Counted from the first letter of the stretch, positions 12,140 to 35,710 are shown. The stretch: DNA of 58,396 nt from Patescibacteria group bacterium (GCA_036170735.1 JAVHPT010000078.1:1-58396); one strand, 5' to 3'. Made by a program: numbers and translations. Notes: a model not told the origin generated them from the sequence alone.

Positions 12140-12144
12140 GCAGA

Positions 12145-14301: not shown

Positions 14302-14351
14302 GTATACTACCAATCGTGAAGAGCCTGAGAATCAAATGTAATCATAGAACT

Positions 14352-14780: not shown

Positions 14781-14786
14781 GGTGAA

Positions 14787-15275: not shown

Positions 15276-15316
15276 AATAAATAAAGATTAGATGAGTAAG
15301 GAATTAGAGATAAGGA

Positions 15317-16003
15317 TTATTTCTTCAACAGAAGAGCTTGGAATGCTTTGAATTTTGTCTTTGGTAGCTGGATTGCTATCGCTTGCGACTCTATCTCCAT
15401 CACGATACGAACGAGCGTATCAGGCTTTGGAGGGTTGAGATAGAACGAGCGAAAAGGGAAAATCTTTGTTTCATTGATGGAGTACACATCTTTACCGAGA
15501 GCCTTACTATTGGCAAGAAATACATTGTATGACATCGAACTCACAATGAGTGTGGCTCACATCTTTGGATCTGTGTATGTCGAATAGGTAGTCCCCACAT
15601 CGAATATATGAAGATCAAAAATACCATTGTTGTCCGTGAGAGTAAACTCCATCGTCGGCATCACTTTTGCGAGGAACTTCCCTGAGATAGGAAGTGTTGT
15701 GGTTGTTTGTGAACTATTTGCTGTTTGTTCACCACTCAGTGTCGGGGAAGTAGTTACTCGACCGGTCGTTACACTCCTTCATTGACTCAGTGCTTCTATC
15801 TGTTTTGAGAGATCATCGATCTTTGCGTCAGTTTTGATCTGGTACTTCAGAGTTTCGATAGCTACAGAAGTATCGGTTTCTGGAGCAGTGGAAGTGGTTG
15901 CCTTACTTATTCAAAAAAGTCCCTGCTTTCCACTCATCGAGTAAATAATACTTCCGATAAAGGCAAGTGCTGCAAGCGCGAGAGTAATGAGAGCTATGCG
16001 CAT
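15317..16003 (-). CDS. Hypothetical secreted/membrane-anchored protein
   Basis: It has the N-terminal hydrophobic segment MRIALITLALAALAFIGSIIY and a T/S-rich linker. 228 aa with 3 in-frame TGA. I recognised no motif. Confidence 0.6.
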
Positions 16004-16044
16004 AGGTTATAAAATGAACATCTCAGAAATAGAAAATCCAGAAT

Positions 16045-16596
16045 TTATTTCTTTCTTCCAACACTCGCAAATTCGATCTCAACTGGTGTATCACGACCAA
16101 GGAGATTGATCATGAGTTTTACCATTCATTTTTGGATATTTACTTCCACAATCTTTCCTTCACTTCCTTCAAATGGACCACTGTTCACGGTTGCATAATC
16201 TCCAACTTGCATATCAGTTTTGTATTCTTCGCTCTTTTCTGTGAGTATTCCCTTGAGTTTCTCGAGTTCTTCGCCACTTACAGGAACAGGAACTGTTCCA
16301 GCACCGAGGAATCCTGTAACGTTTGGAGTATTGCGAACGATATACCAACTCTCATTGGTAACGATCATACGAACGAGGATATATCCTGGGAAGATATTTT
16401 TTTTTCTCTTTACTTTTACTCCTTTAGCTCGTACAGAGATACTATCATGAGTTGGAACAAAGACGTCGAGAATGTGGTTTTCGAGTCAAAACGCTTCACG
16501 ACGTTGCATGAGTGATTCTCGGACATTTTGTTCCGTTCCAGAGATAACACGGATAACATACCATTCTCATTCTGTTTTTGTAGAAAAATCAAACAT
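16045..16596 (-). CDS. nusG: Transcription termination/antitermination factor NusG
   Basis: NGN domain E-G-EWYVIRVISGTEQNV...FPGYILVRM; KOW domain VGDYATVNSGPFEGSEGKIVEV; 183 aa. Confidence 0.93.
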
Positions 16597-16650
16597 GATT
16601 CGAAAAGAGAGATTAGGGATTAGGATTCTATTGGGGGGGGGGTGAACTAC

Positions 16651-17031
16651 TTACTTTGCGACTCCAGTTCCGATAGTTACAGTGTTTGAACTTCCTGTAG
16701 CGATGATTATATTTGCAGCTGATTTGGTTGATCCAGAAGAGACAGATCCAGAAGTAGACTTCTTTTTCTTATCAATGGCATTAAGGAGTCCACTGAGGTC
16801 TTCTTGAGTTGCAGCATTTTCACCACTTACTGTTGTTGGTATGGCTTCATGAGGAAACTGATCACGGATAAAGGAGAGGCTCGCATAGATCCCGTATCCC
16901 AAGATAGCGAGAAATAATGCAATGACGATGATAACTCCAACAGTATATACCATGTATTTTTTGGTTTCGTTCGGAGTTGGCCACACTACATGCTCGAGTT
17001 CTGTAAGGGCTGTCTGGATAAATTTAAACAT
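16651..17031 (-). CDS. secE: Preprotein translocase subunit SecE with a C-terminal extension
   Basis: MFKFIQTALTELEHVVWPTPNETKKYMVYTVGVIIVIALFLAILGY is a SecE-like TM segment in the canonical position upstream of nusG. An extra ~65-aa S/T/G-rich tail follows. Confidence 0.8.
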   Translation of the reverse strand: MFKFIQTALTELEHVVWPTPNETKKYMVYTVGVIIVIALFLAILGYGIYASLSFIRDQFPHEAIPTTVSGENAATQEDLSGLLNAIDKKKKSTSGSVSSGSTKSAANIIIATGSSNTVTIGTGVAK

Positions 17032-17105
17032 ACGAAATAGTTAGGAAGTTCTAAAGTCTCAAATCTTTGAAACAAAAGTTTTGACACATTGCTTTTACGT
17101 GGGGA

Positions 17106-17133
17106 ATTATATAGAAAAGTGTTCTCGAGTCAA
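17106..17133 (-). promoter_or_regulatory. Sigma70-type promoter for secE-nusG
   Basis: The minus strand reads TTGACT-16 nt-TATAAT, about 75 nt upstream of the secE ATG. Confidence 0.6.
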
Positions 17134-17136
17134 AGC

Positions 17137-17162
17137 ATTTTAAAATCCGCTCGGGAGCGGAT
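17137..17162 (-). terminator. Terminator after the NlpC/P60-like gene
   Basis: The minus strand reads atccgct-cccg-agcggat-tttaaaa, about 55 nt after the stop at 17219. Confidence 0.6.
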
Positions 17163-17218
17163 ATGTTGTCAGGGATTATAGTGATAATTTGAGGAAGTCA
17201 AGCTTCTTGTTCTAGATT

Positions 17219-17725
17219 CTAGAAAATCTCTGTGACTCGCTGAATTGCTTTTCCTCGAGGATCAGTAAGTCTGGAAAGTGTTTTGCAGGTAGCGATACCC
17301 CCTTTTCAGATATAGGTATCTATATTTTCCACTTTTCATCCACTTCATGATGAATGAAAAAAAGAATCCTCATCCACCAAGATACCAACATGAGCAATCA
17401 TATATGCTCGATGCGCTACGGACTTTCTGTAAAAGAATATAAGATCCCCCATCTCTCCTTGTTCAAGTGGAATAAGCTGAGCGTCAATGGCTGGATTATC
17501 AAGAATCTTTCGGCACATATCTCACACATAATAATGATGAGGTAGCCATCATGTTGACTTTCCTAAGATATACCGAACGGCACTTACACAATGAGTAACT
17601 CATGGAGCATCAGAGTCTTTGGCGGAGATGATATACTTTGTATCTTTCAATTCATCAATACTTTTTACAAACTCTTCTTCACAAAAAGATGGGTACCGAA
17701 TACGGAGAAGTCAGAAGGTTTCCAT
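17219..17725 (-). CDS. NlpC/P60-like (papain-fold) cell-wall hydrolase, tentative
   Basis: 168 aa. Candidate catalytic Cys is in P-G-VTHCVSAVRYIL and His in AHRAYMIAHVGILVDEDSFFHSS. There are 8 in-frame TGA. Confidence 0.55.
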
Positions 17726-17745
17726 AGGAGAAAATATTACACAAT

Positions 17746-17886
17746 AAAAAAACACCCGAAAAACGGGTGCTTGAAATATTCAAAAACAACCCGTTATACG
17801 AGCATAAATCGGATGAAACTTGACCAAGTGATGAGGTGATTTGAGATTAGCATGGAGGGATTATAAGGAAAAGTTGAAAATTGCAA
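17746..17886 (-). promoter_or_regulatory. Candidate promoter, 19-codon leader ORF and terminator/antiterminator upstream of the NlpC/P60-like gene
   Basis: The minus strand reads TTGCAA-15 nt-TATAAT-ccctcc-ATG CTA ATC ... GTA TAA (leader ORF 17794-17853). AACGGGT (17789-17795, overlapping the TAA) can pair with ACCCGTT (17762-17768). That segment overlaps the terminator stem CACCCG/CGGGUG plus its U7 run (17746-17770), which ends 20 nt before the gene ATG. Confidence 0.45.
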
Positions 17887-17945
17887 TAGGTTTGTAGTGG
17901 CGCCAGTGAGAATGAGGGAGGGGTTTAGTATTGGACATAAGTTTG

Positions 17946-18668
17946 TTAAATTAAGCAATACTTCTGGTGTAGTCTTTGTAGTTGTTTATAAAAAGAATTT
18001 TTTAGTTTTTCATAGATATCTTCAGAGAGTTGTGATTTGATAAAGATCGCTCGAAATAATTTCATTCATTCTTCTGAATGGTACTGACTATAAAGAATGT
18101 ATACCAACTTAGAAAATTCTGTTCTTACATCCTTTCTTAATAATTCATAGTTTTCATATGGGGGATTTTCTTCATGCTCAAAGAACTTATCTAAGCGTTT
18201 TGTATCCAATAAGAAATCGTAAAAATAGAATTTATCACCGTCGGTATTTTTTGCTGCATTTTGTGCCATCTCCGCATGATCCCCATCTCAAAAAGCAAGA
18301 AGAAGGAATTCTCAGGCTAAATATTGTCCCTGAGAATACGTTTCTTGAATTTTATCTGGATCAAATTCTACAGAAAAATATTCTTCTCTCGTTTCCATTC
18401 TCCTATTTCGATATTTTTTTCCTGACTTCTTGAAATCTCAGAGCCAAGCGCGTCCTCTGACGATGTTGGTGGTAGGAATAATTCCACGAAAGAATAAGGA
18501 TATGAACATATCTGCCGGTCACTTACCTCCCTGAAGGTGTACTAATCTTCAAATTTTATCAGGGTCAAAGAAAACCGAATTATTCTTTCAAGCTGCTCAG
18601 AGAATATCTGCCACCGTTTTACCGGTAGAAGTCAAAATAAGTCAGTCGAGAGAATCTACTCGGTTCAT
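17946..18668 (-). CDS. Hypothetical protein (240 aa) with an internal FDPDKI duplication
   Basis: Extending track ORF 18066-18269 through 9 TGA codons gives one ORF with no TAA/TAG (checked). The sequence is MNRVDSLD-G-LILTSTGKTVADIL...SVFFDPDKI-G-RLV...FSVEFDPDKIQETY.... Confidence 0.6.
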
Positions 18669-18741
18669 TCCAGTCGGATCACTTTCTCTAAATGCTTATT
18701 CAGCTTTCTTCATAAACTATCGGGATAATTGTTCCTATAAA

Positions 18742-20547
18742 TTATTTCACCAGTATTGCCTTGATTCTCCTCACTCCTGCAGAGCTCGATTCTTCTTTTA
18801 TGATCTTGAACCTTCCCATTTCCTTCGAGTTTTCAACATGAGGACCACCACAGAGTTCCCGAGAATACAAGACTCAATCCCCCCCAACCATAGAGTAAAC
18901 TTTCACTATGTCTGGATACTTTTCCCAGAAGGTTCACACAACTCATGAGTTCTTCGCCTCATTTTTATCCATGTTTGTTAGAGTGACCACAAGCCCGGAA
19001 TTAATCGCTTCATTCACATAGTTCTCAACTGCCCGAATCTGTTCAGGAGTCATCTTCTCGGGATGGGTAAAGTCGAAGCGAAGACGTTCTGCGGTGATAT
19101 TGGATCCTGCTTGATGAACGTGATCACCGAGAACTTTCCTGAGTCCAGCGAGCATGAGGTGGCAAGCAGAGTGGAGTGCAGTTGTATCACCTGAATCATC
19201 TGCAAGTCCTCACTTGAACTTCCCAGCAGAAGCAGTGCGAGAGAGGTCTTGATGTTTCTGGAAGGCATCATCGAATCCCACCACATCAACTGTAAGTCCT
19301 TGTTCTTCTGCAAGTTCAAGCGTCATCTCGAGTGGGAACCCATAGGTATCAAAAAGGGTAAACGCTTTTCCTCCAGAAATCTGAGTTATTTTCTGTCCAC
19401 TTCGTTCGAAAGCGATTTTGAACCCATTTATGATCTTCTCAAATTCTTTTACACCATCTTTGAGGGTCTTTCCAAATCTTTCTTCTTCGCTTGAGAGTTC
19501 CATCCTGATTTTCTCCGCATTATTTTTTACACTGTTGTAAATCCCTGAAAATTGCTCGATGTAGATGTTGGCAATCTCTGTCGTAAATGGTTGTTCGTAC
19601 CCCATCTTGTATGCCTCACGGATAGCACGGCGGATAAGACGACGGAGGATATATCCCTGATCGACATTCTTCGGAACTACTCCATCAGCGATCATATGAG
19701 TTGCCGCACGAAGGTGATCTGCGATGATGCGGGCTCCGCGTTCATTGTAGTTGGCTTCTCCAACTATCTCATGGATTCGAACAAGTACAGGAGCAAATAG
19801 ATCTGTCTCATACACACTCTTCATGTGATTGAGAGTCACCGTACATCGCTCGAGTCAGAGTCCAGTATCGACACACTGTGCAGGGAGATTGACGAGAGTA
19901 TTCGCATCGACACGATTGTACTGCATGAAGACATTATTCCAGATCTCCATCCACATCTTTGAATCTGTTTTTTTATTGGATCCGCGAGGAGGTTTTCCTT
20001 CGCCCATCCAGTAAAATATCTCTGTATCAGGTCAGCAAGGGCCAGTTGGTCCTGCTGCCCACCAATTATCTTCAGCAGGAAGGTAAGCGATATGATCTTT
20101 GGGCATGCCAACCGACTTCCAGATACCTGCAGATTCATCGTCGCGAGGAGCATTGGCATCTCACTCAAATACCGTCACAGAGATCATCTCTGGATCGAGA
20201 GCTAGCCATTCTTTTGAAGTGAGAAATTCCCAACTCATGGCAATTGATTCGTCCTTGAAGTAGTCGCCGAGCGACCAGTTCCCGAGCATCTCGAAAAAGG
20301 TACAATGCGTATCATCACCAATATCATCGATATCACCAGTTCGTACACACTTCTGAACGTCGGCAAGACGAGTTCCAAGTGGGTGTTTTTCTCCGAGGAG
20401 ATAGGGAACGAGCGGTTGCATTCCGGCCGTATTAAGAAGTACGGACGGATCATTTTCTGGCACGAGCGGTGCAGAAGGGATGATGGCGTGATTTTTACTC
20501 TTGAAGAATTCGAGGTATTTCTGGCGGATTTCGCTGGCGAGGATCAT
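18742..20547 (-). CDS. alaS: Alanine--tRNA ligase, short form ending after the editing domain
   Basis: [46 protein letters not shown]...[16 protein letters not shown]...[10 protein letters not shown]...[38 protein letters not shown]; 601 aa; the frame was checked. Confidence 0.95.
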
Positions 20548-20622
20548 AGCGTGTAGTATTATAGAATTTGCCAAGTATATAAAAAATCCCCCCTTTCGCA
20601 AGGAAGAATTTCGGAATTGTGC

Positions 20623-21822
20623 TTATAATATGCCCCTTTTTCGTTCTCTCTGATCAAGAAAAAGAAGTACGAGAGCAAGAACTATAAATATTCCGAGGAC
20701 TATGCCAAGCATCTCACGGGGAGAGGTTGTTACAAAAGGGAAGATGAGTCACCTCTCAGATAAGAATCCTTGCAGATATGGAGTGGATATATTCATACCG
20801 AGAGCGGTTATGATCCACCCGAGAATCGTTCCGATAACCATAAGAAGAATCGGTTCTCAGAGCGTAAGAAGACGAGATCTCAATGTAAATATACCAAAAG
20901 TTCCAATCATACGATAGATGGATCGTGATTCACGAAATATCCCACCCAGGAGAAAGAGGATTATCACAGAGATGATTCCTCATACTATCGTGAATATTAC
21001 CAGGAATGAAAGTTTCAGTGTATCCAGTTCTTCTTGAAGTTCATTGATTTTATCGCTATCAAAACTCAAGGTAAGATTATGATATTTTTCCTTAAGAATC
21101 TCTTTTTCTCACGGATTTTGCATATATGCAGTAATCTTGTATGGATTCCCGAGTGATTGTCAGATCTCATCTAATCGACTTTTTAGAGTATCCTCTCGTA
21201 GTACAAGTCAGAATCATGGATAGTCAGGGTGTATCGAAGCGATTCGTGCATTTATTGGAGTGGCAGGATTTGTTGTTACATTGAAGAGTTTTGATTCCCC
21301 AACAGTGACGACAACTGGCTGTCCGATAAGGAACTTTTCACTTATCTCAGGGAATTCTACAGCACTTCCAGCGAATTGAGCGTTGTAGTAGTCGAGCATA
21401 TTTCTGGATATCCCTATTTCATTTTCCCCTAGAGTTCCTCAGGAAAGAGCAAATACTGGTATATCAGTCTCAAGGCCAAAAGAAAACAAGGAAAACTTTG
21501 CGAGAACAGGATATTTGATAAGAGTAAATATCTCAATATTCTTGAGACTTGTATCTCATAACAAAGTATCAAGGTCACTTTTTCATATTCCTCATGCATC
21601 TTCGGAGAAGAGAGTAAGGAGATTACTATCCGCGGTTATCTCTACTCTGGTAGGGTCGACGATGGAAGAGAAACTATAATAGGTAACGGCGGAGCTGATA
21701 TTTTTATATACGAAGGAAAGTCCCACAGATAATACTATTAGGAGTATGATCGTGAATATAAAACCGAGGCTTTTACCGATGTGTGTTCTCGCATTAGCGA
21801 AGAGAAATGTGATGATCTTCAT
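20623..21822 (-). CDS. ABC transporter permease, FtsX/MacB-like
   Basis: It has an N-terminal TM segment (KSLGFIFTIILLIVLSVGLSFV), a large central extracytoplasmic region and C-terminal TM helices. 399 aa; the frame was checked. It overlaps the ATPase gene by 29 nt. Confidence 0.7.
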
Positions 21823-22486
21823 GAAAATCAAGGAAAGTGTCAAAGAACTTTGGATCGAATTCACCGTGACTGGAGATAATCATCGTGGCGTTATTTTTCT
21901 CTTGGTATTGTGTGATAAAATCTATGAGCTTCTTCTGAAGTACCGTGTCAAGATGGGATCAGGGTTCATCGAGAAGGAGTATATTTGGTTTGTGGATAAA
22001 TGCACGAATAAGATTGATCCGTTCGCGTTGTCCAGCTGACAATTCTCAGACAGGAGTATATTCATATTGTTTCATCTCAAAATACGTAAGAAGCTCACCA
22101 TACCAGTCCATATCTATTCAGAGAGAAAGTGTTTCTGGAAATATGAGGATATTATCTCGTACATGCATACTCTCGAAGAAATCTGCATCAACAAAGGCAT
22201 AGCCAAATATATAAAATCTCTCTTTTTGAAGCTGGGTATTTGAGAGTTCTCCAACTTGGATTTTTCATGAAGTTGGCCGTAAGATACCTCACACAAGTTT
22301 CAGAAGAGTTGTTTTTCCACTTCCAGATGGTCATGATATGAGGATCTTTTTTCACGGTGATAATTCAAAGGAAAGAGGAAGAATAACCACTTTTTTCTTT
22401 CCATAGCTATAGTTCACATCTGAAGCAGATATGTGTAACGTGCTATTTTCGCTGGTTGGTGATAATGAGATTATTTTCCTGATCAT
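21794..22486 (-). CDS. ABC transporter ATP-binding protein
   Basis: Walker A is IS-G-PSGSGKTTLLKLV, the ABC signature is LSAGQRERINL, and Walker B is LLLDEP-G-SHLD. 230 aa. Confidence 0.92.
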
Positions 22487-25400
22487 GCGAGTGTTGAATT
22501 AGCTCAAGGTAATGTATCTATTGTGGGTTCTATATTTTCTCCTTGCAGAACCGTAGGTGATGAAATAGGTGATATGGGAAGAGGAGGGATTATTTCAGCA
22601 TCTTGAACATCCATTGTTTGTGGGTCAGATATACCTGGGATATTGGTAGAATCGTTATTTGTTGCTGTTCCAGGAGAAACTTCTGTATTTATGTTTTGGG
22701 ATATAGTTCATCGCTTCACCAGCAGCGTAATACCAACTATGATTATAAGAGTTATCATCCCAAGAGCAATATAGATATATATTTCATTGGACGCTGCACT
22801 CTTCGCAGAGCCCACGTTTCGAAAAATCCGTAACTTAAATCCAATCTCATTATCGCCGAGGCTCAGTCCAAATGTCGTATTCCGGAGAAGTGACTCATCT
22901 CCATCAAAGGCTGCATCAAGCTGAACAAGGACATTAAGAGAAATTATATCTTCAATATTTGCTAATCATAAGAATTGTTCAAGCGGAATCCCACTTCAGC
23001 TCATGATTTCTTTTGGAAAATCTCATGCTGTTTTTATATCTTTCCACATATGAAGAGTCGTTCCAGAGAGGCTTGTAAGTTTTCCTTCATCAATACGAAC
23101 CGTGAGCTTTCCAGCATCTCCATGAAATGAAAGAGATCAGATATCATATGTAAATGGTTCTGTCACCTTTCATAGTCTGTGATTTCGATCTTGAGATATG
23201 TAATATACGCCAAATAATGAGTTACCAGAAGTGTCGGTTTTGTTGAGGTACCTTGCATATCTCGAGACGGAAGTGGTATTCTTCTCAAAGAGTCATTTGA
23301 GTTGTTTACTCATCTCTACTCAATCCAGCATGGTAGCGAAGAAAGTGCCTTTTTCAAAAGAGTCCGTTGGAGCTAGCTGCTTCTTCTTAGTGTCTCATGT
23401 AGTAGCAGCATCGATCACATGCCTGATGGTGGATCGATTGATCCCTAGGATAAAGAAGTCATCGATAAATGCGTATGCGAAGCCAATCTTCCCAATATAA
23501 GGAATCGGAAGATCTTCGGCATAGTAGATCTTCTTTCAGTTATAATCTTCGATGAGTGGTTTTGCAAGGAATCATTTTATGAGATTAGCTTCACTTGATC
23601 ATCGAAAATTCTCAAGAATCTTATTGCGGAGTATATCTATGAGTTCTTTTCACTTTTCCTCACTCGTTACTTGTACTGAGATATACGTATTGATCTTCTC
23701 AACATTCCAACCATCAAATATATCAGGATCAATTCCTCCGAGAGTCCATGCAAACTCTCAACCGAGATAATCAAGTATATTCTTCCCGCCAAGTACCTCT
23801 TTGCTAAATTCATCAAATCATACTCAGAGCTCTTTGTTCGCCTGGATTTTTTCTTGAAGTTTTTTGAGGTCAAATCAAAAGACGAACGAGAGAATTCCGG
23901 TCTGGATATGTGGATTGGTAATGAATGAAAGAGAGTCTTTCGTGGCTCAGTCTAGTATTTTTTGTATCTCTTGAATATCTTTATCTTCAGTTGCGGGGAT
24001 CGGAGTCATGAAAAAATCTATTTCCATGCCATCTCAATATCGATTGAGGACAATTCCCATTGGGTCAAGAGAGGCTCGCCAGATGTCTCGGTATTTCAGA
24101 ACGTTATACTTGTAATCTTCTATCTCAGCCCGAGATATCTGAGAGAGATCGTATTGAACCTCAGGAATAGTTTTTACTCATTTGAGAGAACCAATACTTT
24201 TATTTACCACTAGGCCATCGTTCTGGATACTAAACTGAGACATTACACTTCCAGTGAGCGTTGAGAACCCCAATTGGTCGATTTCATCGAGTGATTTTGG
24301 GCTTTTCCCAAAGGCATCACTATAGGCCCAAGTAAGTTCCTGGAGAGACCAGAGATTCTTATAGTCGCGATACTTCCTATAGTGGGTCAGGTAGGTCTCA
24401 AATGTGAGCATCTTCTCGAAAAATGTATCACCAACAAACATAAACGCATCTTGTATTTGCTTGGATTTCTTCCACCAAACGTAGTGAAAATCCGGAGCAT
24501 TCTTCATGCTTTTCTCAATGGCGAGATTTGTTAATCACTCAAGAGACTTCTTCGAATTGGCGATAAAGATATATCCATCTTTTGATCCAACTACCCGAGC
24601 TTTTGCTGTTGGAGAAAGGGCGTCCTTATCAGCCTCTGATAAGATAACGACCATATCTGGAGCTGTTGCATCAAGATTGTTGACGACAATTACCATCTCA
24701 TGTTTCAGATTTTTTTGCAACTGTTCAAAATCTTTGAGTTCAAAAAATGTCAGCAGGAAAGTTTTTATACTCTCTGAAACGTCGATTCCTGAGATGCGAT
24801 TGCTCGTATTGGACTTTTGATTCAGTATATCGATAAGATTCACGGGATTCTTCACATAGAGCATCATACTATCTGCAGGTACATGCGCAAAGATCGCTGG
24901 AATCTCTGGAATAGTAGCACCAGACAAGAGCGCAGTATAGTCTTTCTTTTCTGATGTATTTCCTGGTACAGTATTTTCTCCAATGTGGCCAATATACTGG
25001 ATTTCATAGTCAGGAGTTGCTCCACTTCCAGTATTTTTGTAGGTAAAATTTTTCTTGAATAATTCTAGAGTTCATTTCACTGGCAAGTAACTATTATTGA
25101 GCTGATTAATAGAGTCAGGATATTTTTCATAATCTGAAAAGTATACTCATAGAGCAATTGTAATATCTCTTACATTTGTGAGTGCCGCAGCACATTCCGA
25201 ACGATCAGAATAATTGGAACTTGATTGACAAGGAAGTTTTCAGCTCGAATTACTTGAACTAAATACAGGAATCGTTAGATCTATTTGCTGTTTCTTCTCG
25301 AGCTCAGCCTTTGCTTCAGCAAGAGTGTAGGTATTTTTCTTATAGTTGAGAGTATAGGTTCCACTGCTTTCATCTTGGTATGCTCTCAGAGAATTCATGA

Positions 25401-26481
25401 CATTATCTACGGCACTCACAATAGGCATACTCAATATGTTCTTGCTGGTGCCGATAGCATATAGAGCTTTATCAACTTCCTTACGAGAAGGAACCGATCA
25501 AAGATCAGTAATGGTAGTAATGTCCAAAAGGATATTTTGTATTCAAAACCTCACTCTATCGAGCTTATTTATGTCAACGATTCCATCAGGAAAATATCTT
25601 TTTATTTCGTCTGCGGTTGCACCAGAGATATCCCATGAGAGAGAATCTTTGTAATATTTATTTACAAATTTTCTATCTATTTTAATAGAATATGAGAGCA
25701 AAGCATTCATTGCTTGAATATCAAGGGCAGGCTTTCCTCAAGTAATTACATACTCAAACTCATCTTTCAGACTTTCGATCTTTACGGATCCTCTATTGAG
25801 ATAAATGGTTTCTTGATAGAGTTCTTCAGGTGTAGGAAGGTACCTATTTGATATCTCTCAGCTCCAAGGACAAAGAGTAGATGAATCATTTCCACTGTTC
25901 TCCTTCTGACACTTTTGCCGTTTCAGATCTTTTATCTTTTGTTCGATAGCAGTGATCATATCATTCGAGTTTGTATTTTCCACAAAATTAACTCCGAAAC
26001 TTGCATCGAGAAGCTGTCCTCAGATTGATGAGCCGAATCAGAGCGTTTTCCAATCAGATATAGACGGTCATTTTGGCACTCTATCAAGAATACTTTTTAT
26101 GTTTTGAGACTTTTGAACATCGTTAACATACATGTTAAAATTAGACCCCATTGGAAGGAGTTGATCATAAAAAGATTCATTTCCGGTATAGGTTTTCAGT
26201 ACAATAAACATGATTGCCTTCTCGATCACACTTGTATAGCGATAATTTGGACAGAGAGTGCCATTTGCAATACAATTATACCCATATCTTTCCATACTTT
26301 TAGGAGAAAAATTCGTATCTATCAGAGTTTTTAATTTTGCAAAATCATCTCATGTAGGGTAGGTGATTTGAGGGATGGAATCCGTGGATGAGGATGATGG
26401 TAAAGGAGAAAGAGCAGATACAGGAAGAATTACCGTTCCAATAAGTGAAACGAGAATAAAAAAAGAAAAGAATTTTTTCAT
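22471..26481 (-). CDS. Giant (1336-aa) secreted, C-terminally membrane-anchored protein of unknown function
   Basis: A single frame joins track ORFs 26068-26295, 25240-25434, 24535-24927 and 24178-24507. I checked every line from 22441 to 26481 and found only TGA interruptions. The signal peptide is MKKFFSFFILVSLIGTVILPVSA. The C-terminal TM segment is IYIYIALGMITLIIIVGITLLV, followed by a P/S/T-rich tail. The stop (TAA 22471-22473) lies inside the ABC ATPase start. Confidence 0.8.
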
Positions 26482-26497
26482 AAAAGAAAATAAAGAA

Positions 26498-27445
26498 TTA
26501 TTTGATTGGCTTACGAATAAGTGTAGAGAAATCTATTATACCAGTTGTAGAACGAGCTAACTCATCCACACGATAATATGCTCTCGCTTCAGGAAGGGAT
26601 AGTTTGGTATCTATGAGACTAGCATGGTAAGCGATCTCATCAGAGTGAGCAGGGAGGAGGGCATAGATGCTCCATGGAATCTTATCTTCTCGAAGAGCAT
26701 TCGTATGCATGAGGATGCTTGTTGTACAGTTGTTCCAGAGGGTATTATAGAACTCTGGTTCTCTATTCAGTTTATCTGTTCGTATGAGCATAGAGCGAAA
26801 GAGAGTTTGTATATTCTCTTTTGATGTCTTTACAGGATACATATAGACCTCATTTTTTCGGTAGTTGGTTCGGAGCTTGATCACATCCTCCTCATCAGCA
26901 ACCACATACATGAGCTCAAACTGGTTGAGAACTCCAAGAACTGCGTCAAATGATTCTCCACGTTCCTTTCGTACCTCAGCCGAGATAACCACATGTTGTC
27001 CTCCAGAAAATGAGAATGAGAGCATAGTATGTGCTGGCCCATCAAGATTCGAAAATGGAATGATCATATAGTGAACGGACTCTATTTTATTGAGATCATA
27101 ATCAGCATTATAATATCCAGGAGTAAAGTCTGTATCACTTGACCAACGATGATTCCGCACGTTTTGGATATGTACCGTATTTCCTGACCAAGATATCTCT
27201 GGAAGGATTGATTCTGCTGGTAACCAGTCTCGATATAAGGATGGTTTTTGTGAGAGCCACCATGCGAGTCCAACAGTGAGAATGAGGAGAAAGATCACGA
27301 GAAAAAGTCGCTCGAACCAGTACCAACATACAGCAATGATTTTCCATATTATATGTAGCGTGCATTTCAGGAATTTCCAGAAACCTGGTTTTTCCTCAGG
27401 AACAAATTCTTTTTTAGAAGAGCGGATGATACGACGAGTAGGCAT
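26498..27445 (-). CDS. DUF4105 (Lnb N-terminal periplasmic domain)-like membrane protein
   Basis: Intact 315-aa track ORF with an N-terminal TM segment. The motifs ...DWLPAESILPEI...VHYMIIPFSN...AEVRKE...NYRKNEVYMYPV...FYNTLWNNCTTSI resemble DUF4105. There is no in-frame TGA. Confidence 0.65.
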   Translation of the reverse strand: MPTRRIIRSSKKEFVPEEKPGFWKFLKCTLHIIWKIIAVCWYWFERLFLVIFLLILTVGLAWWLSQKPSLYRDWLPAESILPEISWSGNTVHIQNVRNHRWSSDTDFTPGYYNADYDLNKIESVHYMIIPFSNLDGPAHTMLSFSFSGGQHVVISAEVRKERGESFDAVLGVLNQFELMYVVADEEDVIKLRTNYRKNEVYMYPVKTSKENIQTLFRSMLIRTDKLNREPEFYNTLWNNCTTSILMHTNALREDKIPWSIYALLPAHSDEIAYHASLIDTKLSLPEARAYYRVDELARSTTGIIDFSTLIRKPIK

Positions 27446-27456
27446 AACGAGATATA

Positions 27457-29466
27457 TTATTTTGAAGTATTTTCTGTTTTAAACCAATTACTTGCATGAA
27501 AGAAATAAGAGAAAATCATGAGTGCTCCACCAACTACCATAAGGACGACAATTTTATTGTTTGTCGACATTGTCCCCATATCGTAGAAGATTATCTTTCA
27601 TACGGTTAGGCCAAGGAGAAGAAGTCAAAGAAGTTTTTCTGATCGATATATGGATCAGCGAAGTACTCCTACGGATATCATCCAAACAGCGAGTACTATC
27701 CACCAAAATGTTATAGCAATCGCACGTGGTCAACCAGTTGAGCCTGTGCTTATTCCAAGATCATTCATTCCAACAATGAGGAACGCATTTACAAGGAGTA
27801 AAAGAGTGGTATATCCAAATATTACCAATAAAAATGATGGTCGGCTTATCTTAGTTCCAGCTTGAACAAGTCTACTGAGTCGTAATCAGAGGAATAGGGT
27901 AACAAGAACAAATACACCACTGACAACTTCCGAAGACTTCAGTATTGTTCCGAGAGTGAGTCCGTCAGCAGTATGAGGAGTGAGAAGATTGAGGAAGAAA
28001 AAGAACGGACCAATAAAACCAAATGTCATAAGTATCACGGATATTCTGAGCAAATGTCATTGGGATTCCATAGGAGATTTTGTTACAGTTGCATAGACCA
28101 TAACAAAGAAAGCTGGAAGTATAAAGAACGCAAACGAGAAAGAGAGTTCTTGTAAAACATTGATAAGAAATGTCATGAGAATGATTATCAGCGCAACTGA
28201 TGAGTACATTTTCATTATTGGCGTAGTTGAGTTCTTCTCTGCTTTTGTTGGTAGTTTCCATGTCATAGGATACGCAAGGAGCGCAGGAAGAAGAGCGATA
28301 GTCGTCCAAAATGTCTGAGCACTCATCCCAACAGGATCACTATACATATGATAGAGCGCGAGAATCCCACCGATTCAGGTGAATAGCCAATAGGTCATAA
28401 GTCTCTCTCCTTTTGTAGGATCAACCATGAAGATAAGCGCAAAAATCAGACCAGCGTATGATATTATAGAGCTCGAAAAGAAATTGAGTTCAGGGAAATA
28501 TACAAAGAATCAGGCAATAAGGGAAACTATTCCTCAAACATAGAGAGCAACATGTTGGTACCTGGTCGTCATATTTCGGAGAACATACCAACCTACAAAA
28601 TAAGCCACAGCAATAATTCCGTATAACCCAGCAAGAGTTGTCGTTCCGATTCCTTCTTTCCCAAGAAGAGAAATATTAAACATGAACCAAAGGAGAGGCG
28701 CTATGTATCAAGCGGTCAGATATCCTTCAAACTTGGATTCAAATTTTTGAGATGAAAAGATAATCGCAAATATAGAGAATATTACGAGTCCAGTAAAAAG
28801 CACCGCAGAAAAACCAGTACTTGAGAGAAACTCAGATGCAACGGCGTGTTTGTAGGATAGTGTATATAGACTCGTTGTTCCAACAAGAAGTCCAACCATA
28901 TTTAGGGGAATGAGGTCATAGATGGCAATCTCTCTTCAGAGAAGAAATATAGCAACATTTGCCACAAAGAAATAGAGGAGATATGTATTAAACGAAAGTG
29001 AGCTCGTTCCCCATTCTCCACCAATAACGAAAGGGGTAATATATGCACCAATAAGTACGAGAGCAAGGATCACCTTTGATTTTCGAAAAGATGCAAAATA
29101 TGCAGCAGCAATAGTAAATATAGATGCTACAACAATAGAAGCATTTTCTGGTATAGTGGCAGATCAGAGGTCAGTTGTTCGTGATCAGTAGATAAGCGTA
29201 CCATAGAGGAGGAGGATGCCTCACCCAATCACTACGTCCGCAAAATATGAAAGTCTTTCAGAAAAAGAGAGACCACCACCAATAATAACAACAGAGAGAA
29301 AAAATCCAAGACCGAGTCGAATCGGTTGTGCAAGGTCAACCCAGATACTGTTATAGAGGAGATATCCAAGACCAATTACAAAAAAGAGGACTCAAACTAC
29401 AGGGATAAATTTTTCAATAACTTTATCGATGGTGAGCCCTCATTCTACCTTGTCAGAAAGAGACAT
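27457..29466 (-). CDS. DUF2339-like polytopic membrane protein
   Basis: 669 aa and about 20 hydrophobic segments. The C-terminus is RSEKLL-G-LLLLGLTV-G-KIIFYDMGTMSTNNKIVVLMVVGGALM. Every line from 27421 to 29466 was checked for TAA/TAG. Confidence 0.65.
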
Positions 29467-29546
29467 AAGCGAAATATTATGAATAAAACAAGCTAAAGTT
29501 AACTTTAAATCATGAAAAAGCAAAGTTTCATACATTGACAATTAAT

Positions 29547-30149
29547 CTACTTCTTCCTTATACATACGAAATACTCCTCGAAGCTCCTATCTCGGCATGC
29601 CTTTGGCTTAAACCTGGAGAGTTTCGCATAACGTTCCTTTACAGGAACAATAAGATCATTAATGTCTTCTCAGATAAAGACCTTGAGTATGAGATTTCAT
29701 CATTTTTTAAGGAAAACTTCTGCTACATTGAGGATAGCAAGATTGAGTTCTATCGATCGATATTGGTCTACTCATGTTATGCCTGTCGTATTCGGGGCAA
29801 TATCTGAAGTTATGAGATCAAATTGTCAGATATTGAGTCCATCGAGAAAGGTTCTTATTTTTTCAAATTCAAACACACTTTCCTTGAGGAGATGGATGTT
29901 AGGGTATCCAAAGTTTGGATCAATTTTCTGAATATCAATACCGACAACTTTTCATTCCCGTCCGATGATTTTCGCAATCACCTGGAGGAAGCTCCCAGGA
30001 GCGGAAGCTACATCAAGAACATTCATCTTTGGCTGTATGAGATTGTATTTCTCTTGTATCTCAAGGAGCTTGAATGCACTTCGTGCACGATAGCCGAGTT
30101 TCTTTGCTTTTTCAAAGTAAGTATCTTGCACTGTAAAGGTTTTAGGCAT
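29547..30149 (-). CDS. rlmE: 23S rRNA U2552 2'-O-methyltransferase (FtsJ)
   Basis: YRARSAFKLLEIQEKYNLIQPKMNVLDVASAPGSFLQV...-G-KVVGIDIQ...ITSDIAPNTTGI...ILKVF; 200 aa. Confidence 0.88.
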
Positions 30150-30322
30150 AGTTAAGTAGATGGGTAAAAGGCAGTTCGATCTGGAGTTTTAAGTCTTTGA
30201 TAAAATTTTGACAAACAAATGAATCCGAATAAGATGCTCAGTCGGTGTGACTGACACCTTATTTCTTTCATGTAAAAAATCAAGCGATTCATATGGAAAA
30301 TCAAGCGAAAAAGTGAACATAT

Positions 30323-30895
30323 ATGGTTATCGACCTCGAGATGACGGGACTTAACCCTTTTCAACATGGAGTCATAGAAGTATGAGCGATTGTTCTCAAT
30401 GATACATTCGATGTTATTGGGGAATTTTTCATGGATCTCTGTCCACCAGATAATATCATCATTGACCCAAAATCTCTTGAATATAACTGATTTACGCTTG
30501 ATCGCATTGCTGTAGGAAGGTCATACGAGGAGTTTTGTGATTACTGGGATGCATTTTATGAGACATATTTTTCAGTGGACAACAAGCCAATCATCATCTG
30601 ACAATATATCACGGCGGATATTGCTTTTCTTGCAAGTGTTTTTGCAAATGCTCGTCGAAATAAGCTCTATGAAAAACTCGGAAATGATATCATCGATACC
30701 AAGTCGATTGCTAACCAAGCCAATGCCATTGCCAGGTATAATAAGATTCCTCTTCCATTCAAGAGTACGAGTCTCTCGAAACCTGGTGGGCTTGCAACAG
30801 TTCTTCATCTTGAGGAATACATAGCCCATACAGCAAAAGGAGACATCATGGCAACGCGTGAAGCACTGCTAAAATTCTTAAAGTTTAAAAGATAA
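30323..30895 (+). CDS. DEDDh 3'-5' exonuclease (DnaQ-like)
   Basis: MVIDLEMTGLNPFQHGVIEV-G-AIVL (Exo I), ...IIDTKSIA..., and HTAKGDIMATREALL (Exo III, H-x4-D). 190 aa. Confidence 0.8.
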
Positions 30896-30930
30896 AATCC
30901 CCTTTGAAAAAGAGGAGATTTTTTATATAC
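30896..30930 (+). terminator. Imperfect hairpin plus T-run after the exonuclease gene
   Basis: aaatcccc-tttgaaaaa-gaggagattttttat. Confidence 0.5.
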
Positions 30931-30956
30931 TGCTCGGGTTCTTGTTTCTTTGTTCC

Positions 30957-31168
30957 TGTCATTCCTGACTTGTTCAGGAATCCAATGTTTCCATCGCTCC
31001 CGTCATTCTAAGTATAGTGAAGAATCCAGGATTTTCCACACAGAGCGTACTTTTTGTACAAAAAGTACCAAAAACCCTTCTGGGTCTTCTCTACTTCATT
31101 TTGGTATCTGTTCTATAACTAGATTTCTTAAATCACAAAAACTCACTCCTCCCAGTCGCTCAAACAGT
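30957..31168 (+). repeat. Mosaic intergenic repeat, locus A
   Basis: Modules: tgtcattcctgacttgttcaggaatcca (7-bp hairpin); ccgtcattctaagtatagtgaagaatccaggatttt; ccacacagagcGTACTTTTTGTACAAAAAGTACcaaaaac (22-nt perfect palindrome); cgctcaaacag. Confidence 0.85.
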
Positions 31169-31330
31169 TTGTGATTTTATAAGGAAATCTTTGTTATACA
31201 GATACAAGAAATTTGCAAACGAAGAAAAAGAAAAATATCGGACAGATTTGAGAAAACTCACCAAAGAAATAAGCAAAGATGAATCCACAAAAGAATCTAG
31301 TACCTTATACCTCATAATTTATACCTTCGC

Positions 31331-33115
31331 ATGTCTTACCCAACTAACTGGAATCTCTCTCGATATTTTTATACTGGACTTGATGATACAGAACTCGTTT
31401 CTGCTATTGCAGAGATCCTTCCTCGAACAGAAGCCTTCGCCGCAAAATATGAGAAATCTTTTGCGACACTTACCCATCCAGAACAGATTCTTGAGTTCTA
31501 CACCGACTATACCAAGCTCTCCTACGAGATAGCAACACCAAGCTACTATCTCTTTTATCGTTCTTCGCTAGATACGCAAGACCTCGAGATCCTCAAGAAA
31601 ATGGGAGAGGTGGATTATATCTATACTGAGGCCTCCAATAGGCTCCTCTTTGTTGCTCAAGGATGGAAGGAAATCGGGTACGACCGTATCATGGAATGGT
31701 CTCGTGATCCAAAGCTTGCAAAGTATAAAAATGATCTTGTATCTACAGCTGATGGAATCAAGTATATTCTTAGTGAAAAAGAAGAATATGTTCTCAATCT
31801 AAAGTCTCGTCCTCTTAGTCTCGCGAATGGACTTCATAATGAACTTACTGGTTCCTATGAGTTTGTGATGAATATAGATAATGAAGAGAAGAAATTGACG
31901 GAAGAGGAAGTGAGGAGCTACCGACAGCATACCGACAGGGGTATACGAGAAGAAGCATACCGATCACTTCGAAGAATATACAATACCAGGCAAAATCAGA
32001 TCATACTTGGGAATATCTACACAAGTATCATAAAAGATTGGAGTTCAGAGATTCGTATGCGCAATTATGGAGAAAATGTTATGGCTCAACGTAATATCTC
32101 GGAAGAGATGGATGATGAAGTGGTAAATATGCTCTTATCTGAAGTTGAGAAGGCATATCCATTCTATGCAAGATTTTTGAAGGCAAAAGCAAAGATGCTT
32201 GGCTTTGAGAGCGATTTCTCTGTCTGGGATATTGGTGCACCACTTGGGAATGTAGAAAAGAATTTCTCTTTCGAAGAAGCATATGATCTCCATCTTACGG
32301 TGATGAAGGATTTTGATAATGATTTCTATGATTATTCAAAACGCATGATCGAAGAAGAACGAATCGATGTCTTCCCTCGGGCAGGCAAGCGCGGATGAGC
32401 CTTTGCGAGTTATCGGAAATGAGATGAGAGTTTTGTTCTCTTGAACTTCACTGGTAAACTTCGAGATGTCTCAACAATCTCTCATGAAATCGGACATGCT
32501 ATTCATGGTTACCTCTCTCAAGTTCAAGAAGCTCCAGTCTACGATTCACCCCTTTCTATGGCAGAGACTGCGAGCATCTTCTCTGAGATGCTCCTCGGTG
32601 AGAAAGTGAAGTCACTTATCTCAAAAGAGGAATACAGAGAATATCTTAACGAAAGGCTTGGAGATATATTCTCGACTATCTTTCGCCAAGTTCAGTATGT
32701 AATATTTGAAAAAGAGATTCATACACAGATCCATAGCGGAAATGAACTCACATACAAAGAACTGAATAAACTCTGGAGAAAATCCCAAGAATCACTCTAT
32801 AGCGGAAGTGTTCGTCATGATGTAGCAGCGGAGGATGAGAGTGGTTGGTCGATGATCCCACATATTTTCCATACGCCGTTTTATTGCTATGCGTACGCTT
32901 TTGGAAATCTCCTGACATTCGCCCTCTACAACAAGGTCCATACAGAGAAAATTCTATTGGTAGAGGACTACAAGGATATTCTTCGTGCTTGAGGAAGTGA
33001 ACGTCCTCGTGATCTCCTTGCTCGCTATGGTATCGATATTGCCTCACCAGACTTCTATCAGTCAGGACTCAGAGAAGTGGAGAGGATGGTGGAGGAATTT
33101 GAAGGATTGGTTTAA
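31331..33115 (+). CDS. pepF: Oligoendopeptidase F (M3B family)
   Basis: Track ORFs 31331-32398 and 32441-32992 join through TGA. The zinc motif is TISHEIGHAIHGY and a downstream E lies in SMAETASIFSE. 594 aa; stop is TAA 33113-33115. Confidence 0.9.
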
Positions 33116-33132
33116 TTTTCTAATCTCTTTCC

Positions 33133-33888
33133 ATGTACTCTCTTATTATATTTGATCTCGATGACACCCTTGCTGAGAGCAAGTCCCAGATTAAGCCAGA
33201 TATGGCAGATAACCTATCTCGACTTCTTGAAAAAACAAAGGTGGCTATTATCTCAGGATGAAAATATGAGCAATTCATAAAACAAGTTATATCACAATTA
33301 CCATCTCATGCACATAAAGAGAATCTTTATCTATTCCCAACTTGTTGAGCATCATATTACCATTTCCAAAATAATAAATGGAAAAACGTATACGAGGAAC
33401 GTCTTAAGTTAGAGTGAGTGAAGAAGATATTTCAGGCTTTGAAAGATGCACAAAAAGCTGCAGGTGTGATTACAGAGTGACCATTTTATGGAGAACAAAT
33501 TGAGGATCGTGGGACACAGGTTTCCTGGTCAGCACTCGGGCAACAGTGTCCACCACCAATCAAGGCAACTTGGGATCCAGACCAGAAGAAGCGTCTCTCT
33601 ATGCTCCTATACCTTCAGAAAACACTTCCAGAATTTGAAGCGCGTGTAGGTGGTGCTACGACGATAGATGTTACCCGCAAAGGAATTGATAAAAAGTATG
33701 GTATTTACCAGATGGAAAAATACCTCCATGTTCCACTCGATCAGATGCTCTTTATCGGAGATGCGATATTTCCAGGGGGAAATGACTATGCTGCGGTGGA
33801 AGCGGGAATTGATTACTGCAAAACGACTGATCCAAAGATGACTTTTGATCTCATCAATGATCTTATCGAAAATAACGAAGTAAAATAA
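33133..33888 (+). CDS. HAD-superfamily (IIB-like) hydrolase
   Basis: MYSLIIFDLDDTLAES (DxDxT), AIISG-G-K, TRKGIDKKYG, and FIGDAIFPGGNDYAAV (motif IV). 251 aa. Confidence 0.75.
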
Positions 33889-33936
33889 ACTTCACTTTCT
33901 CCGTAAAATATGCTACAATAGTGGTATATTTTTATT

Positions 33937-34707
33937 ATGCAGACAAAAGACGATCTCATCCGTGAAAATACAGAACTCCGCGGCCGACTCGAACTCGCGG
34001 AAAGGTGGATGCAGCGTGAAGTGCAAGATGCAATGCAATCCATAGATAAGCAGTGAGTGAAATCACGGGCGAGGAAGCACTTTGCCAATCTTCTTGAAGA
34101 AGAAGGAATTGACATCATCGCACGCCGGATACATGAAACATTCGGTTTTAGCCTCGAATGTGCACCAGAGTTCACTCTTGAGCGTCTTATCGATAGTGAG
34201 ATCTACTGGTATACCCTCCAGAAATACCCAACCATGGATGGGCTTCCCGTGATTCTTGCCTATCAGAAAATCCTTGATGCTTGGATAAAAGAGAAGTTGA
34301 TCAAGGGTTTTCGCCGAAGTAATACCAACATACAGATTCAAAAACTCGCATCATGAGATACCCTTGAGAAGGATATTCAAAACATTCTTACCAAAAACTA
34401 CACACTCTCCATTGGTCGTTTGTATCAGATCCTTTCATGTATTCGTGATAAAAGAACTCTTGCTCCTCTGGTTTCCGGGCTTGTTCATTTTTGGAAAGAG
34501 AAAATTCCAGAAATTCTGCAGGTTCTTATTTCTGATGAATTCTTTCTTCCGTTTTCTGAGCTCATGGAACGTGAGATATTCACAAAGAAACGTCACGAAA
34601 AGAAAGTGACGTTTAGTGATGTAAAGAAGGTGAGAGAGGTAATGGTTCAGGCTTTCGGCAGCAGAGAATGATTATTTAGTGTTATCTTTAACATAAATAA
34701 ATATTAA
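33937..34707 (+). CDS. Hypothetical protein (256 aa), N-terminal coiled coil
   Basis: Joins track ORFs 34057-34356 and 34420-34671 through TGA. It starts MQTKDDLIRENTELRGRLELAERWMQREVQ. Under table 25 it runs 12 codons past the TGA at 34669 to TAA 34705-34707. Confidence 0.6.
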
Positions 34708-34766
34708 TGTCAAAGCATTTTTATAAATAATAATATTTTTCATGATTTTTCCCCTATAATCAGTTC

Positions 34767-35246: not shown

Positions 35247-35271
35247 GTGTAGTGCGACAAAGGAATTTTAG

Positions 35272-35596: not shown

Positions 35597-35710
35597 AAAA
35601 ATGAAAAACCATTCTATGTACTATGCACTTTGATTATGTACTAATTCCAAAATTCCCTTGCTTTTGGCTTTACATTCTATACAATTCTTTTTAATTAACT
35701 GCTTCCGCTA

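Follow-up and report, generated by a model that had tools for sequence, protein, structure and literature searches.

A giant surface protein encoded with an ABC ATPase and an FtsX-like permease among acyl-lipid genes of Gracilibacteria

What task would join a giant surface protein to an ATP-binding cassette (ABC) ATPase and a membrane permease, and do the genes that precede them serve the same task? The question is raised by a 58,396-nucleotide (nt) stretch of DNA from a Patescibacteria group bacterium, uncultivated and dependent on a host (GCA_036170735.1 JAVHPT010000078.1:1-58396; here, the window), which carries five consecutive minus-strand genes: g1, a DUF2339 membrane protein; g2, an Lnb_N (DUF4105) protein; g3, a 1336-residue ectoprotein, which we call the giant; g4, an ABC ATPase; and g5, an FtsX-like protein. 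The giant, the ATPase and the FtsX-like protein form a core that is conserved across Gracilibacteria, and this trio lies among acyl-lipid genes in species after species. The explanation that we prefer, with a probability of about one half, is that the trio is a type VII ABC motor with a giant partner, tied to the salvage or remodelling of membrane lipids. In the literature on Gracilibacteria and the candidate phyla radiation (CPR) that we searched, we found no description of the trio, of the extended block of lipid genes around it, of the pairing of DUF2339 with Lnb_N or of CPR lysophospholipid acyltransferases, and no mention of DUF3352, the family to which the giant is distantly related.

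A conserved core of giant, ABC ATPase and FtsX-like protein

Counting the window, the comparison covered 17 distinct Gracilibacteria loci, the other 16 being L001-L019 once duplicates were removed. The giant, ABC and FtsX-like genes are contiguous, in this order, in every locus that has downstream DNA, down to 38% identity, except in L019, whose giant-like protein is the most divergent (33% identical) and has no ABC or FtsX neighbours. The DUF2339 and Lnb_N genes stand immediately upstream in the window, L002/3, L004/13, L005, L008, L010, L011, L012 and L015 (the last with a DUF2339 protein of 1110 residues; Pfam E=1.7e-13); in L006 and L014, Lnb_N is present at the edge of the contig. No such pair lies upstream in L001/16, L007, L009 and L018, and L019 lacks it too. 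The original prediction, made from the window alone, was of a dedicated five-gene machine; the giant, ABC and FtsX-like core of that machine is conserved, but the DUF2339 and Lnb_N pair is optional and replaceable. The prediction was to be given up if homologues of the giant were never syntenic with the other genes in relatives or if the giant fell into a well-characterised family. On both counts it stands: every locus but L019 has the giant's homologue in synteny with the ABC and FtsX-like genes, most have it in synteny with the DUF2339 and DUF4105 genes too, and no characterised family was matched. In L019 (1109..10042), the giant-like gene follows genes for a 925-residue prepilin-type (N_methyl) protein rich in Reg_prop beta-propeller repeats and for a TraG/VirB4-like ATPase.

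Type VII ABC systems, such as MacB, LolCDE and FtsEX, use ATP hydrolysis in the cytoplasm to move domains outside the membrane, and so act on periplasmic partners or outer-leaflet cargo; LolCDE pulls acylated cargo from the outer leaflet. The best reading of g4 and g5 is that they constitute a mechanotransducer of this type with a new giant partner. As in the known systems, a separate ATPase is paired with a permease predicted to have one transmembrane helix, a large outside domain and three further helices, a putative FtsX-like domain falls over these last three helices, and an extracytoplasmic partner is encoded alongside. The 1+3 topology of g5 (helices at residues 20-38, 274-292, 325-343 and 371-389) is kept in 12 family members, seven of which match PF02687. 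In six orthologues of g5, positions 3-115 of the 120 in this model align at residues 275-387 and score 18.7-25.1 bits (cutoff 25.5; E=1.9e-5 to 1.8e-3), and a profile of the family searched against the PDB places FtsX on top (E=0.3, two colinear stretches). On topology and these near-threshold matches, we call g5 a divergent FtsX-type permease.

The analogy to known type VII systems is not exact. The g5 protein has no Pfam match, its orthologues fall just under the cutoff and its outside domain matches no MacB_PCD, which none of the 12 family members shows at E<=10. The ATPase is not an FtsE, LolD or MacB equivalog, scoring 90.2 bits against the NCBIfam cutoff of 264.85 for FtsE (TIGR02673) and 88.7 against 307.75 for LolD (TIGR02211). 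Finally, the partner is a C-terminally anchored, DUF3352-related protein of 1336 residues, whereas the known partners are membrane fusion proteins, EnvC/PcsB and LolA. The proposal that the two genes encode a MacB/FtsX-type ABC pair is supported by topology and near-threshold FtsX matches, but not by a clear family match.

The giant itself has a signal peptide, about 1210 residues outside the membrane and a single C-terminal transmembrane helix, much as had been described from the window (an ectodomain of about 1200 residues with no recognised domain); it has no lipobox. Searches of Pfam and NCBIfam gave no match (PF11832 is absent at E<=0.1). A word-indexed search found 14 full-length homologues, 44-97% identical and all from Gracilibacteria/'Altimarinota', and one further distant protein shares the architecture. 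Profile searches of the PDB returned nothing for the strongly conserved C-module and, for the N-module, the sole match was Geobacter PilA at E=0.6, which is not significant. AlphaFold2 models were built in two halves on P0004, a code-25 orthologue that is 61% identical in the C-module; P0001, which is g3 with tryptophan at its TGA codons, was kept in the alignment. Their confidence is low to moderate, with a predicted local distance difference test (pLDDT) of 65 and a predicted TM-score (pTM) of 0.44 for one half and 58 and 0.31 for the other. Foldseek comparison of both halves with the PDB gave nothing below E=0.18, the top matches being TP0453 and TiME at that value with TM-scores of 0.1-0.3, and no fold was assigned. 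Thus, the structural check that had been suggested for the giant yields no well-characterised family, and the view that the locus matches no described system holds: the giant fits no characterised family or solved structure, and the literature searched contains no account of the trio.

Between the variable region and the C-module lies a Cys-Cys segment that resembles a pilin in its helix-plus-sheet arrangement, modelled by AlphaFold2 as a long helix and two strands with a pLDDT of 72-85. It has no N_methyl motif and nothing was found for it by Foldseek. Two orthologues (P0009 and P0011, from L004/L013 10001..14029) have a second copy inside the variable region, and the Cys-Cys module is thus duplicable. 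The giant contains exactly six cysteines, at positions 70, 77, 191, 204, 418 and 430. Of these, C70, C77, C191, C418 and C430 are invariant in the family alignments, and C204 is not among the positions listed as invariant when all 15 sequences are aligned. The pattern suggests that the protein may hold up to three structural disulfides.

Relatives of the giant outside this family were found through its C-module. An exhaustive search with a hidden Markov model (HMM) of the module returned 270 representatives, many of about 900-1260 residues and covering its first ~530 positions; proteins of about 1000 residues match at E=1e-13 to 1e-24. Alignment by hhalign of the C-module profile with 42 distant relatives gives 100% probability (E=5e-42, 497 columns), and 11 of these 42 match PF11832 (DUF3352), the best at E=3.8e-7. 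Because of this profile homology to PF11832-matching proteins, we place the C-module in a DUF3352-related superfamily of exported envelope proteins. The likeness covers the first ~500 residues of the C-module, and the ~1000-residue relatives are apparently exported envelope proteins as well; the Gracilibacteria giants differ in having no PF11832 match of their own and in their extra N-terminal modules and C-terminal anchor. Coupling to ABC and FtsX-like genes is confined to the giants: as a trait of the whole superfamily it was rejected, since it occurs in none of 18 standard-code loci. Three of the 42 relatives carry SLH domains, three PilN and one (P0114) a DsbA-like domain. Standard-code relatives of about 1000-1260 residues are encoded immediately upstream of SecD and SecF in L029 (11376..13700), L031 (9006..10475) and L035 (2718..5177), and a PEBP gene lies downstream in the DUF3352-related locus L020.

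Lipid genes around the core

The DUF2339 protein, g1, belongs to the family of Arc3A. It matches PF10101 over residues 24-656 (E=9.6e-22; 77.9 bits, cutoff 33.6) and has about 19-20 hydrophobic segments, as expected from the original description of a DUF2339-like protein with some 20 helices; orthologues of 664-670 residues lie directly upstream of Lnb_N in nine distinct loci. Arc3A of Pseudomonas (PA5114), itself a DUF2339 protein, accounts for most of the resistance to Tle3, a phospholipase toxin, and keeps lysophospholipids from accumulating; other Arc3A homologues complemented a P. aeruginosa Δarc3A mutant against Tle3 (PMC8926400). The resemblance of g1 to Arc3A of Pseudomonas aeruginosa lies in a DUF2339 domain above the Pfam cutoff and in very many transmembrane helices. 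It extends to the surroundings: aas genes adjoin arc3 genes in many bacteria (PMC8926400), and Aas-like genes accompany the trio locus in five Gracilibacteria. In contrast, g1 has about 20 helices where Arc3A has 35, and it is paired with an Lnb_N enzyme. No gene for the Arc3B partner (PF13163) adjoins g1, whose neighbours are the Lnb_N and FtsJ genes. Because Arc3B has been reported from Gram-negative phyla only (PMC8926400), its absence does not exclude g1 from the Arc3A family.

The DUF4105/Lnb-like assignment of g2 is also firm: PF13387 is matched at E=7.9e-36 (123.7 bits; cutoff 22.2), and a triad, H139/E157/C240, is near-invariant among 11 orthologues (at most one deviating sequence being allowed). 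DUF4105/Lnb and YiiX proteins are lipid-directed permuted NlpC/P60 enzymes of the acyltransferase clade (PMC11573676, PMC12994826), and Lnb itself is the lipoprotein N-acyltransferase of Bacteroides, a DUF4105 protein of 398 residues with five transmembrane helices (PMC11573676). Like Lnb, g2 is a member of the permuted NlpC/P60 fold family and conserves the catalytic His and Cys at a similar spacing (101 residues, against 99 in Lnb). It is smaller, with 315 residues and one transmembrane helix, and so lacks the five-helix architecture; the third residue of its triad, at +18, is Glu as in TseH (PMC11573676), whereas Lnb has Asn; and the host of Lnb is a diderm of the Bacteroidota, which the host of g2 is not. 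Most likely, g2 is an acyltransferase or hydrolase that depends on phospholipids or lysophospholipids and works on the membrane's outer face.

In L001/L016, L007 and L009, which lack the pair, its position is occupied by other acyl-lipid genes. Genes for a C92 protein (YiiX/YaeF-type permuted NlpC/P60), ACPS and a major facilitator superfamily (MFS) protein lie directly upstream of the trio in L001/16 and L009, and downstream of it in L014 and L015. In L007, a C92-like gene and a patatin phospholipase gene are upstream, the latter directly so. Upstream in L018 are the cysteinyl-tRNA synthetase gene and a gene for a membrane protein with no assignment; the neighbours in L018 and L019 are unrelated genes. 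On the other side of the trio, an Aas-like gene, which fuses a PlsC acyltransferase to an acyl-ACP synthetase, comes directly after the FtsX-like gene in L006, L007, L014, L015 and L017. Among NCBIfam families, its product matches acyl-ACP-phospholipid O-acyltransferase best (E=3e-118), and its identity to Escherichia coli Aas is 29-32% over about 500 residues. In L004, L010 and L012 the trio is followed by an α/β-hydrolase gene (Hydrolase_4/Abhydrolase_1 type), and in L014 and L015 the block includes one. The fullest arrangement, in L015, is a series of ten co-directional genes: DUF2339, Lnb_N, giant, ABC, FtsX, Aas, C92, ACPS, hydrolase and MFS.

This company recalls the lysophospholipid recycling operon of E. 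coli, Aas-LplT, in that an Aas-type fusion and an MFS protein travel with the locus in several species. It differs from that operon in that these genes are absent from the window, the MFS protein has no detectable similarity to LplT, and the Aas-like proteins are some 200 residues longer and contain a DSLD motif like that of carrier proteins. Their length is about 900 residues (L015 14053..16833, L006 6895..9648, L014 6871..9567, L017 3492..6287) against 719 for E. coli Aas. Four of the five have an internal L-H-A-D-S-L-D motif resembling a phosphopantetheine site, and ACPS, a phosphopantetheinyl transferase, is encoded one gene away; the Aas-like protein may thus be a self-contained acyltransferase-carrier-synthetase. 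In L001 (1257..5840; the same as L016), the genes upstream of C92-ACPS-MFS encode an AMP-binding enzyme, an epimerase/NAD_binding_4 protein resembling fatty-acyl reductases and a 740-residue FAD_binding_4/ALO protein, a set reminiscent of fatty-alcohol or ether-lipid synthesis.

Genetic code, gene models and features of the window

The window is unreadable with translation table 11: open reading frame (ORF) calling gives only fragments in the region, and nearly every gene is broken. With TGA read as sense, the ORF space of the window increases threefold and the 1336-codon ORF emerges. We therefore dropped table 11 for code 25, that of Gracilibacteria. At the 34 TGA sites of g3, orthologues translated in code 25 have Gly in 53 of 102 alignment cells and Trp in 0 of 102, and UGA is thus glycine. 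A search of the 58-kb window for tRNA genes, which could have confirmed the code directly, found none. Public protein sets contain both W- and G-translated copies of the same genes, and table-11 translation mishandles the window throughout (1..58396).

Given TGA as sense, the five co-directional genes on the minus strand are exactly as first described, with gaps of 11 and 16 nt followed by overlaps of 16 and 29 nt (Table 1), and the gene calls deposited under GCA_036170615.1 (JAVHPN010000036.1) agree, with products of 692, 315, 1336, 230 and 399 residues. The one discrepancy is the start of g1, for which the shorter product is favoured because the orthologues have 664-670 residues. The packing had been taken to suggest translational coupling. 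This is plausible, but the packing is not distinctive in so compact a genome: 91% of the window is coding, 15 of its 35 same-strand junctions are 20 nt or less, and the five genes sit within a longer minus-strand run (15317..30149). Because tight junctions are common here, we rejected spacing alone as evidence of an operon; that the genes are a unit rests instead on the conserved synteny and on a hairpin resembling a terminator after g5. The hairpin matches a consensus pattern, and a consensus scan found 11 sites of the terminator type in the region against 5.9±2.5 in shuffled sequence. A promoter scan of the region was uninformative (31 matches, 30 expected).

The alanyl-tRNA synthetase (AlaRS) gene is next after the FtsX-like gene in the window, L001, L002, L005 and L009, with one gene between in L010 and L011. 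At the other end of the five genes, a perfect palindrome, TCAGTC-ACACC-GACTGA (30238..30254), lies in the divergent intergenic region of about 140 nt between the FtsJ/RlmE and RNase_T-like genes and could be an operator for divergent promoters. A 225-residue minus-strand ORF in this area (30152..30829) looks spurious.

Table 1. Features of the five genes and their immediate neighbours in the window (TM, transmembrane helix; aa, amino acids)
Feature	Position	Strand	Size or residues	Remarks
RNase_T-like gene	30293..30895	+		assigned by synteny with L002
FtsJ/RlmE gene	29547..30149	-		upstream of g1; ends 11-80 nt before g1 start
g1, DUF2339/Arc3A-family polytopic membrane protein	27457..29466	-	669 aa	deposited start 29535 (692 aa)
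g2, membrane-anchored Lnb_N/DUF4105 permuted NlpC/P60 acyltransferase-like protein	26498..27445	-	315 aa	
g2 TM	27251..27307	-	47-65	hydropathy; single clear TM
g2 Lnb_N domain	26672..27115	-	111-258	Pfam PF13387
g2 triad, His	27029..27031	-	His139	
g2 triad, Glu	26975..26977	-	Glu157	
g2 triad, Cys	26726..26728	-	Cys240	
g3, giant ectoprotein	22471..26481	-	1336 aa	
g3 signal peptide	26413..26481	-	1-23	Sec-type; N-terminal signal-like helix
g3 N-module	25747..26367	-	39-245	conserved; Cys-containing, three invariant Cys
g3 variable region		-	246-375	conservation map
g3 Cys-Cys pilin-like segment	24967..25239	-	~415-505	
g3 C-module	22807..24948	-	512-1225	strongly conserved
g3 DUF3352-related part	23383..24942	-	~514-1033	homologous to DUF3352-related proteins
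g3 TM	22717..22782	-	1234-1255	sole C-terminal TM
g3 cytoplasmic tail	22474..22716	-		Pro/Ser-rich
g4, ABC ATPase	21794..22486	-	230 aa	Pfam ABC_tran E=4.7e-26
g4 Walker A	22310..22333	-		GPSGSGKT
g4 signature	22028..22042	-		LSAGQ
g4 Walker B	21965..21982	-		ILLLDE
g5, divergent FtsX-type permease (putative)	20623..21822	-	399 aa	
g5 TM1	21709..21765	-	20-38	hydropathy
g5 extracytoplasmic domain	21007..21708	-	39-272	~235 aa
g5 TM2-TM4/FtsX-like domain	20656..21006	-	273-389	
Terminator-like hairpin, then TTTTTT	20587..20607	-		16 nt past g5 stop; probable 3' end of transcription unit; consensus pattern match only
AlaRS gene	18742..20547			next gene after g5

Possible functions of the trio

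We suggest that the five genes of the window would form two modules. In one, the Arc3A-family protein would act together with an outward-facing, single-pass enzyme of the Lnb type at the outer face of the membrane. In the other, ATP hydrolysis by g4 would drive motion of the ~235-residue outside domain of g5, and the giant would be the partner on or through which this motor works. The trio would thereby move or extract lipids, lysolipids or acyl chains at the cell surface, for lipid salvage and remodelling. Such a job seems most likely because the trio lies among acyl-lipid genes in species after species. Surface assembly, attachment and lipid handling had all been named as possibilities at the outset; lipid handling alone has gained independent support from gene context, and the other two have gained none. 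The analysis establishes the gene models, the families, the topology, the conserved synteny and the lipid neighbourhood. It is from this context that we infer a lipid function; a physical coupling of the giant to the permease, the substrate and the direction of transport are inferred as well.

Several observations weigh against this explanation. What links the genes functionally is in every case guilt by association, drawn from a single phylum whose loci are not independent of one another in phylogeny. Conserved order alone can mislead, because a housekeeping gene, that for AlaRS, is linked downstream as faithfully as some of the lipid genes are. The 58 kb of the window contain no homologue of Aas, C92, ACPS, the hydrolase or the MFS protein, so that its lipid genes are the DUF2339 and Lnb_N genes only, and the MFS protein found elsewhere was rejected as an orthologue of LplT because it has no NCBIfam match and no BLAST or HMM similarity to the E. 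coli protein. On the protein side, g5 itself is without a Pfam match, hhalign of its family is weak against E. coli FtsX (E=0.005, probability 7%) and not significant against LolC, and the weak AlphaFold2 models of the giant, compared by Foldseek, present no recognisable lipid-binding fold. Lastly, the distant standard-code relatives have no ABC or FtsX neighbours, and the position of several of them beside SecD/SecF, together with the PilN, SLH and DsbA-like fusions of some, argues for a general role in the envelope or in export rather than one involving lipids.

These points leave room for other explanations, of which we consider four. The five genes could be two unrelated units that happen to be adjacent, the DUF2339 and Lnb_N genes modifying lipids or lipoproteins and the trio serving host attachment or surface display, with the ABC motor helping to deploy a giant adhesin or altering its conformation, and the lipid neighbours reflecting inherited gene order. 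The trio does persist in L001/L016, L007, L009 and L018, from which the pair is absent, AlaRS is linked just as faithfully, and the genome, at 91% coding, has generally tiny gaps. Moreover, the giant has a hypervariable region (246-375) and a pilin-like insert, features common in surface-recognition proteins, and Gracilibacteria are thought to attach to hosts (PMC11452946). Frozen gene order alone, however, would hardly account for the replacement of the missing pair by other acyl-lipid genes beside the trio, in three arrangements, and neither an adhesin repeat nor a lectin domain was detected in the Gracilibacteria giants with Pfam and NCBIfam. We regard this explanation as unlikely without being far-fetched. 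Another possibility is that the giant, as one of a DUF3352-related family working with parts of the Sec, type IV pilus or type IV secretion apparatus, is a scaffold in the envelope for such pilus or secretion machines, the ABC pair being a lineage-specific addition. In its favor are the PilN fusions of distant relatives (3 of 42), the relatives directly upstream of SecD/SecF in L029, L031 and L035, the 33%-identical L019 protein beside a TraG/VirB4-like ATPase and a prepilin-type protein, and the pilin-like Cys-Cys segment of g3 (Geobacter PilA, E=0.6, weak; AlphaFold2 pLDDT 72-85). Yet the 16 Gracilibacteria loci with the trio are all without adjacent pilus or Sec genes, the likeness to pilin lacks statistical significance and the fusions are a small minority, which leaves the scaffold a slim chance.

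The remaining two explanations take their cue from known type VII systems. Since the lipoprotein N-acyltransferase of Bacteroides belongs to the Lnb_N family (PMC11573676) and the catalytic residues of g2 are conserved, the Lnb-like enzyme could N-acylate lipoproteins that the ABC ATPase and FtsX-like permease, as an extractor resembling LolCDE, would pass to the giant for display. LolCDE is indeed a type VII system, of two FtsX-type permeases and LolD; but g4 scores far under the LolD cutoff, the g5 family shows no significant match to LolC, and the giant itself has no lipobox. Furthermore, the Aas, patatin and α/β-hydrolase neighbours point to phospholipids, and g2 has one transmembrane helix against the five of Lnb (PMC11573676). 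Together, these points make a lipoprotein pathway improbable. There is a further difficulty in that CPR bacteria are generally held to have no outer membrane to which lipoproteins could be sorted. A regulator of cell-wall remodelling or division of the FtsEX type, in which the giant would be a switched partner like EnvC, PcsB, CwlO or RipC, would agree with the fact that the best matches of g5, weak as they are, are to FtsX itself, and FtsEX systems do activate a partner outside the membrane. Here, too, the specifics disagree: g4 reaches 90 bits against an FtsE cutoff of 265, the outside domain of g5, at ~235 residues, has the size of those of MacB or LolC rather than that of FtsX, Pfam and NCBIfam searches find no hydrolase, LytM, CHAP or coiled-coil activator domain in g3, and there are no division or wall genes among the neighbours in the loci examined. 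This explanation seems very improbable.

If the lipid-moving role that we prefer is taken further, the giant and its ABC motor could be the surface end of an unrecognised pathway by which Gracilibacteria acquire or remodel membrane lipids, a proposal that we put forward tentatively and as more doubtful than likely. At the surface, phospholipids, lysophospholipids or acyl chains supplied by host cells or detritus would be caught or extracted; outside the cell, enzymes of the Lnb-like and YiiX-like kinds would trans-acylate them, with the Arc3A-like protein acting as a buffer; and inside, the Aas-like enzyme with its carrier domain, primed by the neighbouring ACPS, would re-acylate.

Patescibacteria/CPR bacteria do not synthesize lipids, neither fatty acids nor phospholipids, and no route of uptake has been identified (PMC11665869). 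The locus offers a defined and conserved set of genes, up to ten of them co-directional, that bears on this question, and, if the pathway is real, it would stand as the first concrete candidate for the means by which a CPR lineage obtains its lipids. Two poorly understood families, Arc3A/DUF2339 and DUF3352, would thereby gain their first genomic partners, and the extracytoplasmic partners of mechanotransducers of the MacB, LolCDE and FtsEX type would include a new kind. Even if the lipid function should prove wrong, there would still be a phylum-specific giant surface protein that is nearly always accompanied by an ABC motor and is relevant to the interaction of an episymbiont with its host.

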